A DNA stretch of 64,000 nucleotides from the NCBI RefSeq assembly GCF_003018115.1, contig NZ_CP027457.1. One strand, given 5' to 3'. The position numbers were made by a program. Below are positions 1 to 6,000 of the stretch, one piece after another. This stretch comes from Escherichia coli (GTDB lineage Bacteria; Pseudomonadota; Gammaproteobacteria; Enterobacterales; Enterobacteriaceae). Numbering within the stretch: position 1 is the stretch's first letter; every line of letters starts with the position of its first letter.

Positions 1-3000
1 TTCGGCGCTTAACCACTGACCCACTGCTTGCGCGAAATCGGTGACGTGCAGGAAAGAGAGCTGTGTATCTGGCGCACCAAGTCGTGGCAGCAGGCCGCGC
101 AGCATCCAGTCAAACAGCGGTTTTAACTCTTTATCGCCGGGGCCATACACGGCTGTCGGGCGAAAAACGCCCAGCGTAATTTTGTCAGCCATTGCAGTCA
201 GCCGTTGTTCGGCGACGTATTTGGAATTTGCGTACCAGGAGAGTTCGGGATGGCGCGCCGCCAGCGAAGAGATAAACAGAAAACGTTGGCAAAAACCGCT
301 CTCTTTTGCCGCCTGCATCAGGCGCAGACTGCCGTCAACGTTACAGCGGGTGAAAATCTCTTCTTTGTGCCCGCGCACTTGTCCGGCGCAATGAACCACC
401 GCGCTGGCTCCGGCAACCAGTTCGCTAAGCGAATGTGTATCTTCCAGCGAACCGCGCACCCAGGTGAGATTATCATTGACGTGAGCGCGGGCAGTACGCG
501 TCAATGCGCGAACGTGAAAGCCGCGGGCGAGCAGGTTATTGATAATATATTTACCGATAAACCCGGTAGCGCCCGTCACCGCGACAGTTTGATTCATGCC
601 AGGGATTCCTGCACATGAAGGCTTGCAGCATAAGCCTTCTGATAACGTTTTTTCGCTTCCGCACGGGCAGGCTTGCCGGAGGACGTTCGGGGAATGCTGT
701 GGGGCGGCAACAGATCGATAGCCGCGGTCACGCCAAATTCGCTTTGGATCCGTGCTGCCAGCGCGTGGATAAGCTGCCCGCGACGTTCTTCATCGCTGAT
801 CCGACACTGGATCTGCAAAATGATTTTTTCCTGGGCGGTAACAAAAGCAATCGCATCGCCAGAATGAATTTCCGGTTCCTGTTCCGCTATATATTCAATA
901 TCCTGCGGCCAGATATTACGGCCACGAATAATAATCAGATCTTTAATGCGTCCGGTGACATACAGATAACCGTCCAGCAGATAACCGAGGTCGCCAGTGT
1001 CTAACCAGCCCGTCGCGGCAATCTCGTCTTGCGAAGCCTGGTCGCCAAAGTAACCGCTCATCAGACTGGGACCGGAGATGCAAATATGGCCTACCACACG
1101 TTCCGCGACCGGCATACCTGCTTCATTGCGGATTTCAATACCATGTTCCGGCAACGCTTTGCCGCAGTTGACGAAAGTCGATACGGCGCGTGTCTCTGCA
1201 CCCGGCGCGACGGCTTTACCCTGATATTCGAGGATGTCGCGATCCACTTCGTTAACCACAACCCCGGAGGCTTCATCAGAGAAGCTGACAGCCAGCGCAT
1301 TTTCTGCCAGTCCGTAGCACGGCATGAAAGTTTTATTGTCAAAGTTAACCTGACGGAAACATTCAGCGAATTGATGGAGTTGTTCTGCGGAGATGGGTTC
1401 TGCACCAATACCAGCGACGCGCCAGCAGGAAAGATCCAGTTCAGCGAGATCTTTTTCATTCACGCGGCGCTGGCACAATTCATAGCCAAACGGCGGCGCA
1501 ACGGAAACGGTGCCGCGATTTTTACTGATCAATTTAAGCCATTGCAGAGGACGCATGGCAAAATCCTGAGTGCGCAAATAATCTACTGAAAGTTGCGTGG
1601 CGACGGGGGTCAGGAGAAAGCCGACCAGTCCCATATCATGGTAGAAAGGCAGCCAGGAGACGCAGCGGTCGCCAGGGCGTAATTTAATGCCATCGTGGCT
1701 TATGGCGCGTAGATTAGCCATCACTTCGCGGTGAGTGATAATGACGCCACGGGGAAAACGGGTGCTGCCGGAGGTGTACTGGAGGTAGGCGATATCGTTC
1801 GGAACTGGACGCTGGAGCGCAACATCGGCTTCCGGTAATGCCTTAAACCAGGCGTGGCTTAAAACATGTAATTCGGGGTTGTTGTTATGCGTCGCGGCAT
1901 TGACCAGCGGTAACCACTCATCACCAGTGATAATGGCTGCGGGCTGGCAACTTGCCAGTAAACCCTGCAGTTTGGCGCTCCAGGAATCCCGCTGACCGAC
2001 GCCCATTGGAATCGCCAATGGTACGGCAACTAATCCAGCATACTGACAGGCAAAAAATGCCTCGACAAACCCGCTACTGGTTTCGGCAATCAGCGCCACG
2101 CGATCGCCTTTTTTCAGGTTTAGCGATAACAACCGCTTCGCACCAGCTTCGGCACGCGCTTTTAACGTCTGATATTCCAGTTGATCTTCAAGTTGGCAAC
2201 GTCTGTCATAAAAATTCATTCCAGCGCTACTCAGAGCGGCGTAGTCCAAAGCATCAACCAGCGTTGGAAAATCGGCATAGCGCATAGGTAGGGAATGCGT
2301 AAAGATTTTATTAGACATATACACCACGAAAAAATTGGATATCCAAAATAAAATGACAATAATGCGGTGGATTATATAGGCATAAAAGATAAATGAGATA
2401 GTATTTTCATCAGTGTGAAAATGAACATTGATTTAAATAATGAGTTTAAGTTTTTTTGTTTTTATTGTGAATGATATTTAATTTATGAATATATTAAGAA
2501 GAAGCCTTGTCCGGTCGCCTTAAATCGACAAAAGGCATTGTGGCGCTTCTGTGTAGTCGCTGACCTTATCGTAATCATTAATAAATACTATTTATTCGTC
2601 GTTTGTATTCATTGGGTTGATTATTAAGGTGCCGTTCGTTGCTGTTGCAACCTGTTTGTCACCGTTAATTATTTGTTACCCACAGAACTATGGAATGCGA
2701 TCTGCTGATGATTAAAATTGAAAAAGTAATAAATAAAAACGACTTAAAGGCATTTATCGCTTTTCCGTCATCACTTTATCCCGACGATCCAAACTGGATA
2801 CCCCCTTTATTCATTGAACGCAACGAGCATTTGTCTGCGAAAAATCCGGGGACGGACCATATCATCTGGCAGGCGTGGGTGGCAAAAAAAGCGGGGCAGA
2901 TAGTTGGGCGTATTACCGCGCAAATAGATACCTTGCACCGCGAGCGTTACGGCAAAGATACCGGTCATTTCGGCATGATTGACGCCATTGATGATCCGCA

Positions 3001-6000
3001 GGTTTTTGCCGCGTTGTTTGGCGCAGCGGAAGCGTGGTTGAAGTCCCAAGGTGCAAGTAAGATCAGCGGTCCTTTCAGCCTGAATATCAATCAGGAAAGC
3101 GGATTACTGATTGAAGGTTTTGACACACCACCCTGTGCGATGATGCCACACGGCAAACCGTGGTATGCCGCGCATATTGAACAACTGGGTTATCACAAAG
3201 GCATTGATTTACTGGCGTGGTGGATGCAGCGAACCGATCTCACTTTCTCTCCGGCGCTAAAAAAACTGATGGATCAGGTGCGCAAAAAGGTGACCATTCG
3301 CTGCATCAATCGCCAGCGGTTTGCCGAAGAGATGCAGATCCTGCGTGAGATTTTCAACTCTGGCTGGCAACACAACTGGGGATTTGTGCCGTTTACCGAA
3401 CATGAATTCGCGACCATGGGCGATCAACTTAAATATCTGGTGCCGGACGATATGATCTACATCGCTGAGATTGATTCTGCACCCTGCGCGTTTATTGTCG
3501 GCTTGCCGAACATCAACGAGGCGATTGCCGATCTGAACGGATCGCTCTTTCCCTTCGGCTGGGCAAAATTGCTGTGGCGTTTGAAAGTCAGCGGTGTGCG
3601 AACTGCGCGAGTACCGCTGATGGGCGTGCGCGACGAGTATCAGTTCAGCCGCATCGGCCCGGTGATTGCGCTGTTATTGATTGAAGCCTTACGCGATCCG
3701 TTTGCCCGCCGGAAGATCGATGCGCTGGAGATGTCATGGATCCTCGAAACCAATACAGGCATGAATAACATGCTGGAACGCATTGGGGCGGAGCCGTACA
3801 AGCGTTACCGATTGTATGAAAAGCAGATTTAATACCAGCTAACTCAGGTTCATCTCCAGCGGCACCGCCGAGCGAATCAAATGGTGGCCTTCCAGCTCGA
3901 TATCGTGGAGATTCTTTTTCACGGTCCGCACATGATCGCGTGCTGCGCGCTGGGCGACGTGCGGCAGCCGCTGCAACACCGCGTTGTAGATCCGCGCATG
4001 CTGGCGATCGATCTGCTTTTTTTGCTGTGGTCGATGGTAGAGATTATTTACGCTGGCAAACACTGAATTAAACATCAGGTCGGTCAATGATTGCAGCGTA
4101 AACACCAGCACCTGATTGTGAGAAGCCTGACAAATGGCGAGATGGAAAGCGTGATCCAACTGCGCATGTTCGATCAGCGAAATCTCTTTGTTGTTCTCAC
4201 TGGCGGCGAGCATTTTTTCATAACAGCGGGTTATCACAACAAAATCAGCCTGCGTTCCCAGCGTTGCCGCCAGCCTTGCCGATTCGCCCTCCAGCAATGC
4301 GCGAACGTCGAGCAGATCGTACAGCGTTCGCGGCTGCGTGCTGAACAGATGAATTAGCGGGCTGGTGTCCTGCACCCGATTAAGCCGTGCGACACGAGAA
4401 TCGCGACCCTGCGCCGTTTCAATAATCCCGCGCCCGCGCAGCACGGTCAGCCCTTCACGCAGTGCGGAGCGTGAGAAGCCGAGCTTTTCACACAGTCGAC
4501 GTTCCGAGGGAAGCGGCTGACCGACCTTCAGTACGCCGTCGATAATTAACCGTTCGATACTCTCTGCAACCACTTCGCAAATAGGGCGACGTTCATCTTT
4601 CATTCCCGGACCTCGTGCACAGGTAGGACCAATTTTTCTGTACTTAACTCGCAAAACACGCACATCACGTAAGTGATTATGTTACATCAATTTAACATTG
4701 AGTTAACCAAGGCAAGGTCACAGAGCTGGAAAAAAAATGGTCTGACCGGTAGCTAAAGAGATAGACGAAAACGAAAAGCCCGCTTAATAACTGTTCACAG
4801 AAGCAGCGCGCAAAAATCAGCTGCCACACAACACAACTAAGCGAAGCCTACTCATGAGCATCTTGTACGAAGAGCGTCTTGATGGCGCTTTACCCGATGT
4901 CGACCGCACATCGGTACTGATGGCACTGCGTGAGCATGTCCCTGGACTGGAGATCCTGCATACCGATGAGGAGATCATTCCTTACGAGTGTGACGGGTTG
5001 AGCGCGTATCGCACGCGTCCATTACTGGTTGTTCTGCCTAAGCAAATGGAACAGGTGACAGCGATTCTGGCTGTCTGCCATCGCCTGCGTGTACCGGTGG
5101 TGACCCGTGGTGCAGGCACCGGGCTTTCTGGTGGCGCGCTGCCGCTGGAAAAAGGTGTGTTGTTGGTGATGGCGCGCTTTAAAGAGATCCTCGACATTAA
5201 CCCCGTTGGTCGCCGCGCGCGCGTGCAGCCGGGCGTGCGTAACTTGGCGATCTCCCAGGCCGTTGCACCGCATAATCTCTACTACGCACCGGACCCTTCC
5301 TCACAAATCGCCTGTTCCATTGGCGGCAACGTGGCAGAAAATGCCGGCGGCGTCCACTGCCTGAAATATGGTCTGACCGTACATAACCTGCTGAAAATTG
5401 AAGTGCAAACGCTGGACGGCGAGGCACTGACGCTGGGATCGGATGCGCTGGATTCGCCTGGTTTTGACCTGCTGGCGTTGTTCACCGGATCGGAAGGTAT
5501 GCTCGGCGTGACCACCGAAGTGACGGTAAAACTGCTGCCGAAGCCGCCCGTGGCGCGGGTTCTGTTAGCAAGCTTTGACTCGGTAGAAAAAGCCGGACTT
5601 GCGGTTGGTGACATCATCGCCAATGGCATTATCCCCGGCGGGCTGGAGATGATGGATAACCTGTCGATCCGCGCGGCGGAAGATTTTATTCATGCCGGTT
5701 ATCCCGTCGACGCCAAAGCGATTTTGTTATGCGAGCTGGACGGCGTGGAGTCTGACGTACAGGAAGACTGCGAGCGGGTTAACGACATCTTGTTGAAAGC
5801 GGGCGCGACTGACGTCCGTCTGGCACAGGACGAAGCAGAGCGCGTACGTTTCTGGGCCGGTCGCAAAAATGCGTTCCCGGCGGTAGGACGTATCTCCCCG
5901 GATTACTACTGCATGGATGGCACCATCCCGCGTCGCGCCCTGCCTGGCGTACTGGAAGGCATTGCCCGTTTATCGCAGCAATATGATTTACGTGTTGCCA

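Follow-up and report, generated by a model that had tools for sequence, protein, structure and literature searches.

The first 3832 nucleotides of a 64,000-nucleotide stretch of Escherichia coli DNA (NCBI RefSeq assembly GCF_003018115.1, contig NZ_CP027457.1; hereinafter, the window denotes this stretch at its full length) very probably carry three of the five structural genes of a proteobacterial-type sphingolipid (dihydroceramide) pathway, the other two, acpR and spt, belonging to the same operon and lying directly upstream of position 1. The three genes encode an extended short-chain dehydrogenase/reductase (SDR) and the ligase AasR, both on the minus strand, and YghO, on the plus strand. 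The locus, the pathway and the structure of the ligase are already published. In E. coli BL21(DE3), the sphingolipid (dihydroceramide) genes were named by Padilla-Gomez et al. 2022 (PMC9386255), namely ECD_02851 (aasR, a specialised acyl-acyl carrier protein synthetase), ECD_02852 (epi, a presumptive keto-sphinganine reductase), ECD_02853 (acpR, the carrier protein), ECD_02854 (spt, serine palmitoyltransferase) and ECD_02850 (yghO, denoted aca, an acyl-CoA N-acyltransferase). The proteins encoded in the window are nearly the same as those of BL21(DE3), with 380 of 380 identical residues in YghO, 555 of 563 in AasR and 194 of 199 in the N-terminal part of the SDR.

The genes beyond position 1 could be read from the closest public genome, that of strain F9792, which differs from the window by a single nucleotide over the 3832. 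There, on the ligase strand, the remainder of the SDR gene is followed by a gene for an 82-aa acyl carrier protein (ACP) and by spt, as annotated by the NCBI Prokaryotic Genome Annotation Pipeline (PGAP), and the gene layout of BL21(DE3) is the same. The product of the spt gene passes the threshold of the NCBIfam serine palmitoyltransferase model NF047599 (600 bits, cutoff 500). An initial annotation, made from the window sequence alone, had proposed a lipid-biosynthetic cluster and the kinds of genes to be sought beyond position 1; the ACP and the α-oxoamine synthase are of these kinds, and the ligase-SDR pair indeed sits in the published sphingolipid locus. The same annotation drew the edge of the cluster at the spacer, with yghO outside; this has to be revised, given that yghO is itself a structural gene, the fifth of the set, so that the window holds the last three genes of the cluster, which ends at the boundary between yghO and glcC.

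The ligase belongs to the fatty acyl-AMP ligase family

AasR (594..2318, minus strand; 574 aa, intact) was assigned on the basis of NCBIfam and Pfam matches, similarity to a protein of known structure and a conserved start codon. It scores 874.1 bits against NF006624, the NCBIfam model of the fatty acyl-AMP ligases (FAAL; cutoff 600), but 102 bits against NF006523, the FadD equivalog model (cutoff 884). The Pfam AMP-binding domain is detected with an E-value of 2.1e-58, the ANL core motifs are readily recognizable (YTSGST, YGLAE, TGDLG, GRIKD and TSSGK), and PDB entry 3PBK, 'Fatty Acyl-Adenylate Ligase', matches the protein with ~99% identity across 574 aa. The latter protein, EcFAAL, serves as the structural reference for FAALs, in which bulky residues block the canonical coenzyme A (CoA) pocket (PMC8460268); for the crystal structure, that article cites Zhang et al. 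2011. Taking the reference positions of EcFAAL (helix T252-R258; W224, M231 and F279; PMC8460268), we found the FAAL-specific helix TQDFAMR and the bulky W, M and F pocket residues all present in the window ligase, at a constant offset of -2. Furthermore, alignment with FadD of E. coli K-12 reveals an insertion of ~32 residues (VNEVDRD...STFVNC) after YGLAE, the FAAL-specific insertion for which the initial annotation had recommended a search, and this insertion is common to AasR homologues of Pseudomonas, Nitrococcus, Nitrospira, Desulfopila and Hansschlegelia.

Judged by these features, the ligase is a true FAAL, as the first description of it as FAAL-like had anticipated, and the combination of the insertion, the helix, the pocket residues and the low FadD score removes the alternative of a degradative CoA ligase, which had been named as the outcome that would overturn the biosynthetic interpretation. 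EcFAAL is reported to place 14C-lauric acid onto holo-EcACP, and both the rejection of CoA and the acyl transfer to holo-ACP are reported for this protein, ~99% identical to the one encoded here (PMC8460268).

In F9792, the ligase gene is annotated by PGAP as a pseudogene ('internal stop'), with the stop at codon W116 (VVYM numbering), whereas codon 116 in the window is TGG and the frame is open; the minus-strand open reading frame (ORF) 594-2327 runs without interruption. The glcA gene is also frameshifted in F9792 and intact in the window (11596-13278). Because both lesions are absent from the window, the window stems from a close relative, or else the F9792 lesions are strain-specific or are assembly errors.

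The predicted reductase and N-acyltransferase

The SDR gene, a homologue of epi/cerR, is represented in the window by its 5' part (1..597, minus strand; 199 of 304 codons) and was identified through motifs in the translation, Pfam and synteny; the length of 304 aa is that of the full gene in F9792. The 199 visible codons start MNQTVAVTGATGFIGKY and include GATGFIG at residues 9-15 (GxxGxxG) and YANSK at residues 122-126 (YxxxK). The full-length F9792 protein matches the Pfam family Epimerase (PF01370; E-value 9.8e-23), and the score against the GalE model is 31.5 bits (cutoff 262). At the equivalent position of a Caulobacter sp. locus there is an SDR with 38% identity. We presume from its sequence and setting that this protein is a 3-keto-sphinganine/3-keto-dihydroceramide reductase. 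The initial designation, 'epimerase/dehydratase', was apt insofar as the protein is an extended SDR that bears this Pfam family name, but the family name is all that it conveys, the expected chemistry being reduction of a 3-keto group.

The yghO gene (2708..3832, plus strand) was interpreted through identity to its BL21 counterpart, predicted fold and synteny as coding for a tandem-GNAT N-acyltransferase, a homologue of aca/bCerS. The AlphaFold model of YghO (mean predicted local distance difference test score 94.2, from a 31-sequence alignment) has tandem GNATs as its top PDB matches, with E-values from 9e-16 to about 1e-8. These structural neighbours (2wpw, 5kf1, 7q3a, MshD, Eis and FemX) include a tandem GNAT of the clavulanate pathway, a glucosamine N-acetyltransferase and MAB_4324, and the Pfam domain Acetyltransf_1 is detected in 4 of the 31 YghO homologues. 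A word-indexed search with YghO retrieved only relatives with at least 79% identity; the Caulobacter homologue was reached by an exhaustive search of representative sequences, which delineated a family of 6480 representatives at E ≤1e-3, combined with a genome scan. Aligned along its full length, YghO has 44% identity with the product of the gene in the CC_1154-like position of the Caulobacter sp. locus, and orthology of yghO to C. crescentus CC_1154 (CCNA_01212) has been asserted (PMC9386255). On the strength of the model we are confident that YghO adopts a GNAT-type acyltransferase fold, and the gene is best read, from fold and synteny together, as encoding a ceramide-synthase-type (aca/bCerS) N-acyltransferase, a reading that corrects the annotation of yghO.

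Conservation of the gene neighbourhood

We examined 80 loci that encode homologues of YghO (41-96% identity) and belong to Gamma-, Beta-, Alpha- and Deltaproteobacteria, Nitrospira and Gemmatimonadetes, many of them on incomplete contigs. At distances of up to 10 kb from the yghO homologue, aasR was found in 49 of the 80 loci, spt in 44, acpR and the SDR gene in 42 each, and genes for LptG-like and LptF-like proteins in 43 and 38, respectively. In all 42 loci that have both genes, the SDR gene follows aasR immediately and on the same strand, so that the ligase-SDR adjacency is not due to chance. The divergent arrangement of aasR and yghO as neighbours recurs in 23 loci, out to Pseudomonas, Salinicola, Nitrococcus and Wenzhouxiangella, and the order of the block is kept in Pluralibacter, Pseudocitrobacter, Hafnia and Erwinia. 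In the Caulobacter sp. locus, the order is aasR-SDR-acpR-spt, with the yghO homologue 8 kb downstream, which fits the published C. crescentus map.

Gene boundaries and the divergent spacer

On the minus strand, the stop codon of the ligase gene (TGA, 596-594) overlaps the start codon of the SDR gene (ATG, 597-595) in the context 5'-GCATGAATC-3'; the ATGA overlap (594..597, minus strand) was taken directly from the sequence, which reads GGCATGAATC on the minus strand. Such an overlap is compatible with translational coupling of aasR and the SDR gene; in other genera, the gap between the two genes is estimated at about -1 to 163 nt. For the ligase there are three candidate starts, namely the ATG at 2285 chosen by PGAP, the GTG at 2327 that opens the longest ORF, and the ATG at 2318. 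The last of these is conserved out to Pseudomonas, and the crystallised protein along with the cross-genus conservation supports it as the probable start. The start of yghO is placed by PGAP at 2690 (2690-3832), and the conserved ATG is at 2708, the homologues being mostly 374 aa long; the gene ends at 3832, 6 bp short of the convergent glcC. The ATGA overlap and the SDR partner that runs off the window had both been described correctly in the initial annotation.

The same is true of the very AT-rich spacer of ~360 bp in front of the divergent yghO. Between the mechanically called ORFs it spans 362 bp (2328-2689; 31.5% GC), and between the conserved start codons 389 bp (2319-2707; 32.6% GC), a region taken as the putative divergent promoter region of aasR and yghO. 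Against a window mean of 51.9% GC, the lowest 200-nt stretch of the spacer falls to 22%. The spacer is poorly conserved beyond E. coli (402 of 404 positions are identical to BL21). It contains one weak terminator-like hairpin, and a search for repeats produced nothing beyond short, imperfect AT-rich inverted repeats. An Rfam scan of positions 1-5000 gave no match at E ≤1, and σ70-like sites are not in excess in the spacer (2 found versus 2.8 expected from shuffled sequence). The AT-richness suggests, by inference only, a silenced divergent promoter, for instance one silenced via a nucleoid protein.

Distribution, loss and selection

Among 5426 complete E. coli genomes, 4087 (75%) match the 3832-bp query over 80% of it or more, 487 have partial matches and 852 have none. 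In K-12, the match is limited to 2732-3832: IS5 lies on the ligase side, in place of the 3' part of yghQ (which is truncated) through the first yghO codons, and the ligase and SDR genes are missing, as the initial annotation had stated. It had also proposed a comparison with O157 genomes, and in O157:H7 Sakai the locus is missing as well. There, SpLE3 fills the whole stretch from the tRNA gene pheV to a truncated pitB, and the type II secretion genes, sslE, the glc operon, yghO and the lipid cluster are all absent from this position. SpLE3 of Sakai begins at pheV and carries espL2, nleB1, nleE and efa1 fragments; in the window, pheV (tRNA-Phe, 30562-30637, minus strand) has no island attached to it.

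The coding GC content is 55.9% for the SDR gene, 52.7% for aasR and 50.1% for yghO, compared with 51.9% for the window. In the locus-positive strains F9792 and BL21, no mobility genes, tRNA or repeat boundary is annotated between pitB and glcC; the nearest tRNA gene, pheV, is ~27 kb away, and IS5 is confined to K-12, where it marks the deletion. The ratio of nonsynonymous to synonymous substitutions (dN/dS) is 0.03-0.10 for the SDR gene, aasR and yghO in comparisons with a divergent E. coli, with BL21 and with other genera. The presence in 75% of the genomes, the normal GC content, the conserved order of the block and the purifying selection together indicate that this is not a sporadically acquired island. 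The locus is old, chromosomal and under purifying selection in E. coli, and both absences are secondary losses, an IS5-associated deletion in K-12 and replacement by SpLE3 in O157:H7 Sakai. Of the strain-variable island originally envisaged, the presence/absence polymorphism is real, but the normal GC, the lack of mobility genes and the secondary nature of the losses do not fit an island.

The predicted pathway and its alternatives

We propose the following pathway. AasR would activate a free fatty acid by adenylation and pass the acyl group not to CoA, which it would reject, but to the 4'-phosphopantetheine of the dedicated carrier protein AcpR. Serine palmitoyltransferase would then join acyl-AcpR with L-serine to give 3-oxo-sphinganine. 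YghO is predicted to N-acylate the long-chain base, and the extended SDR to reduce the 3-keto group, yielding dihydroceramide, with these two steps possible in either order. Finally, YghQ, which is weakly similar to MOP flippases, and a second LptF/LptG pair would probably carry the lipid toward the outer membrane.

The first two steps rest on published experiments with proteins whose identity to those of the window is 98-100%: AcpREc bears 4'-phosphopantetheine, AasREc acts with AcpREc in vivo, and SPTEc incorporates 14C-serine into a 3-oxo-sphinganine-like product. For the Caulobacter set, the assignment of C18 3-oxo-sphinganine was backed by high-resolution mass spectrometry (PMC9386255). 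For the other three steps, we infer the roles from fold and homology and from the synteny shared with the Caulobacter locus, which has been characterised genetically. The product of the cluster, considered unknown at the outset, has a published pathway that has been partly tested with BL21(DE3) proteins; for the final native lipid, we found no report in the literature.

Several points weigh against this interpretation. In the published experiments, the 3-oxo-sphinganine-like product appeared only upon over-expression and was not seen in empty-vector BL21(DE3), a locus-positive strain, and the products of ECD_02852 and ECD_02850 are described as proteins that 'might' perform the reduction and acylation (PMC9386255). 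Our literature searches retrieved no report of a native E. coli sphingolipid, of a link between yghQ and sphingolipids, or of an assay of YghO. Among NCBIfam models, none is dedicated to this reductase, and the SDR matches no family above cutoff (the best is HpnA, 96 bits, cutoff 368), and YghO itself has no Pfam or NCBIfam match. CerR of Caulobacter is described as periplasmic (PMC11087976), whereas the N-terminus of the SDR encoded in the window has no obvious signal peptide, the Rossmann motif beginning at residue 9, which leaves the location of the SDR and the order of the two last biosynthetic steps uncertain. The comparison with Caulobacter is one with the Caulobacter sp. locus and a published homology table rather than with the C. 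crescentus proteins themselves. Finally, function has been lost repeatedly (by deletion in K-12, by replacement in O157 and by the W116 stop in F9792), which suggests that the locus is dispensable.

Some of these points are shared by the alternative that survives best and that refines, rather than displaces, the sphingolipid assignment, namely that the locus is cryptic, being transcriptionally silent under ordinary conditions, perhaps by way of the AT-rich divergent promoter region, and producing no lipid, or producing it only in a special niche. We take this possibility seriously although we lean against it. It would account for the lack of the 3-oxo-sphinganine-like lipid in the empty-vector strain and for the finding that SPT alone yields no new lipid (PMC9386255), and it agrees with the GC content of the spacer (31-33%, with the 22% minimum), the losses tolerated in K-12, O157:H7 Sakai and F9792, and the lack of papers on a native E. 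coli sphingolipid in our searches. The low dN/dS, which points to selection within E. coli as well as across genera, and the retention of the locus in 4087 of the 5426 genomes argue against it, as do the sphinganine-like and ceramide-like spots that were ascribed to 'intrinsic enzymes of E. coli BL21(DE3)', that is, the products of ECD_02852 and ECD_02850 (PMC9386255), and that imply that the SDR and YghO are natively expressed to some extent.

We consider it improbable that the cluster makes a different amino-lipid, such as a CqsA-type α-hydroxyketone autoinducer, a sulfonolipid or an N-acyl amino acid. FAAL, ACP and SDR genes do co-occur in many lipid pathways, and the upstream α-oxoamine synthase also matches BioF, Kbl and CqsA-type models; all these matches are below the curated cutoffs (220 bits versus 428 for the CqsA-type model), and we rejected these identities of the condensing enzyme. 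The only model that passes its cutoff is that of serine palmitoyltransferase, NF047599, and the incorporation of 14C-serine by SPTEc, the mass spectrometry of the C18 Caulobacter product (PMC9386255) and the fit of the gene order to the Caulobacter ceramide locus likewise argue for sphingolipid synthesis. The combination of a degradative CoA ligase with an unrelated sugar epimerase of an envelope polysaccharide, for which one could cite the Pfam name of the SDR ('NAD dependent epimerase/dehydratase') and the PGAP labels of yghQ ('lipopolysaccharide biosynthesis protein') and of the permeases ('LPS export'), is effectively refuted by the FAAL and FadD scores, the insertion, the helix and the blocked CoA pocket, the crystallised 99%-identical protein being an established FAAL, the lack of β-oxidation genes near the locus in the F9792 annotation, the failure of the SDR to pass the cutoff of any sugar-epimerase equivalog, GalE included, and its placement between aasR and acpR-spt in 42 of 42 loci.

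Flanking genes and a possible native lipid

Further out from spt, the F9792 genome contains a second lptG and lptF, a YtfJ-family gene, a gene for a 274-aa protein, yghQ, yghR, yghS, yghT and pitB. Against TIGR04407, this additional LptF scores 319 bits (cutoff 230), and the additional LptG reaches 308 bits against TIGR04408 (cutoff 240); their genes (L001:12050-14196) are named by PGAP 'LPS export ABC transporter permease'. Because of their position and of a 2026 preprint on Caulobacter (10.64898/2026.04.12.717747), in which LptF2 and LptG2 are found in complex with one another and with LptB, these proteins are probably sphingolipid transporters, the 'LPS export' (lipopolysaccharide export) name being a likely over-transfer. 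In the same preprint, 'sphingolipid operons' of E. coli UTI89 are drawn beside those of Caulobacter, and the homologous Caulobacter region is reported to include LptF2, LptG2 and the flippase candidate CC_1166 (PMC11324152).

The yghT, yghS and yghR genes (L001:6859-9228) encode three paralogous P-loop proteins that are weakly dTMP-kinase-like, with scores below the NCBIfam cutoffs. They survive in K-12, and their homologues are found no more than 10 kb from the yghO homologue in 10 of the 80 loci (e.g., L027:8205-9700 and L013:~3054), including homologues with 54-55% identity in a metagenome-assembled genome of a betaproteobacterium. YghR, YghS and YghT are candidates for head-group enzymes. 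We also considered whether they are homologous to CpgB, the ceramide kinase of Caulobacter, and rejected this identity: CpgB has a diacylglycerol-kinase/LCB5 domain, whereas YghR/S/T are P-loop proteins. Between yghQ and the second lptF lie the genes for the 274-aa protein and the YtfJ-family protein (L001:10623-12019); the former has no NCBIfam family, and the latter scores 215 bits (cutoff 151) and has a signal-peptide-like N-terminus. Both genes accompany the cluster in other Enterobacterales (8-11 of the 80 loci).

On the other side of the locus, the stretch of F9792 that matches window positions ~13760-30400 is annotated with a complete set of sslE, pppA, gspS-beta and the genes of the beta type II secretion system (gspC-M), of which K-12 is known to keep only remnants. 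Also annotated in this stretch are the three genes of a TRAP transporter, which lie between hemW and yggM, and, between speB and speA, a gene for a 243-aa hypothetical protein.

Taken together with the sphingolipid assignment, the flanking genes lead to a tentative and somewhat doubtful proposal, namely that most natural E. coli (about three-quarters of the complete genomes) may, under some condition, make an outer-membrane sphingolipid with a head group unlike that of Caulobacter, perhaps added via YghR/S/T, the 274-aa protein and the YtfJ-family protein, and exported by the second LptF/LptG, and that this lipid would have been missed through the IS5-associated deletion in K-12 and a divergent AT-rich promoter region that keeps the locus quiet in the laboratory. 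Textbook E. coli lipid composition derives from K-12, the very strain that deleted the locus, which is why the question of a native sphingolipid matters. In other bacterial species, sphingolipids are involved in the outer-membrane barrier, in sensitivity to polymyxin and phages, and in host signalling.

Comparison with known systems

The closest known system is the locus ECD_02850-02854 of BL21(DE3), which is the same as that in the window in gene order and in the spacer (402 of 404 positions), the differences being purely allelic, among them an additional Asn in the ligase ('HNNNPEL'). The window stops within the SDR gene and so lacks acpR and spt, both of which are part of the BL21(DE3) locus. 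The ligase alone has an equally close counterpart in EcFAAL (3PBK), with which it shares, besides the ~99% identity over 574 residues, the helix, the pocket residues and the insertion. The structural work treats EcFAAL as a generic FAAL model, and the word 'sphingolipid' is absent from PMC8460268. Mycobacterial FAALs and those of polyketide synthase/nonribosomal peptide synthetase (PKS/NRPS) systems, such as FadD32, FadD28 and the FAAL domains of polyketide synthases, have the same ANL fold and the FAAL insertion and, as is predicted for the window ligase, deliver the acyl group to the phosphopantetheine of a carrier protein, not to CoA. They are far less closely related to it (at most 270 bits, compared with 1294 for 3PBK), and the acceptor here would be a stand-alone ACP that serves a pyridoxal phosphate-dependent condensing enzyme rather than a PKS or NRPS.

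The C. crescentus ceramide locus, as laid out in PMC11324152 and the 2026 preprint and in Olea-Ozuna 2021 and Stankeviciute 2022 as cited by later papers, comprises CC_1165 (aasR), CC_1164 (epi/CerR), CC_1163 (acpR), CC_1162 (spt) and CC_1154 (aca/bCerS). With the E. coli locus it shares all five enzyme families and the gene order aasR-SDR-acpR-spt, along with a second LptF/LptG and a flippase-like gene; in the Caulobacter sp. locus, the identities to the E. coli proteins are 53% for Spt, 38% for AcpR and the SDR, and 44% for YghO. The two systems differ in that yghO is directly divergent from aasR in E. coli but ~8 kb away in Caulobacter, in that the E. coli locus lacks the cpgABC-type head-group genes and lptC2 of Caulobacter, and in that it is flanked, unlike the latter, by yghRST (P-loop, dTMP-kinase-like), the YtfJ-family gene and the 274-aa gene.

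In the eukaryotic and Bacteroides pathway (SPT, KDSR and CerS), the overall chemistry is the same, with condensation of serine and an acyl thioester to 3-ketosphinganine, reduction and N-acylation. The order of the last two reactions is a point of difference with Caulobacter, for which the Klein group has proposed that acylation comes first and that the reductase is periplasmic (PMC11087976). The proteins predicted for E. coli depart from the eukaryotic and Bacteroides pathway in three further respects: the acyl donor of SPT would be a dedicated acyl-ACP supplied by a FAAL, the reductase would be an extended SDR of the epimerase family, and the acyltransferase appears to be a soluble tandem GNAT rather than a CerS of the TLC-domain membrane type.

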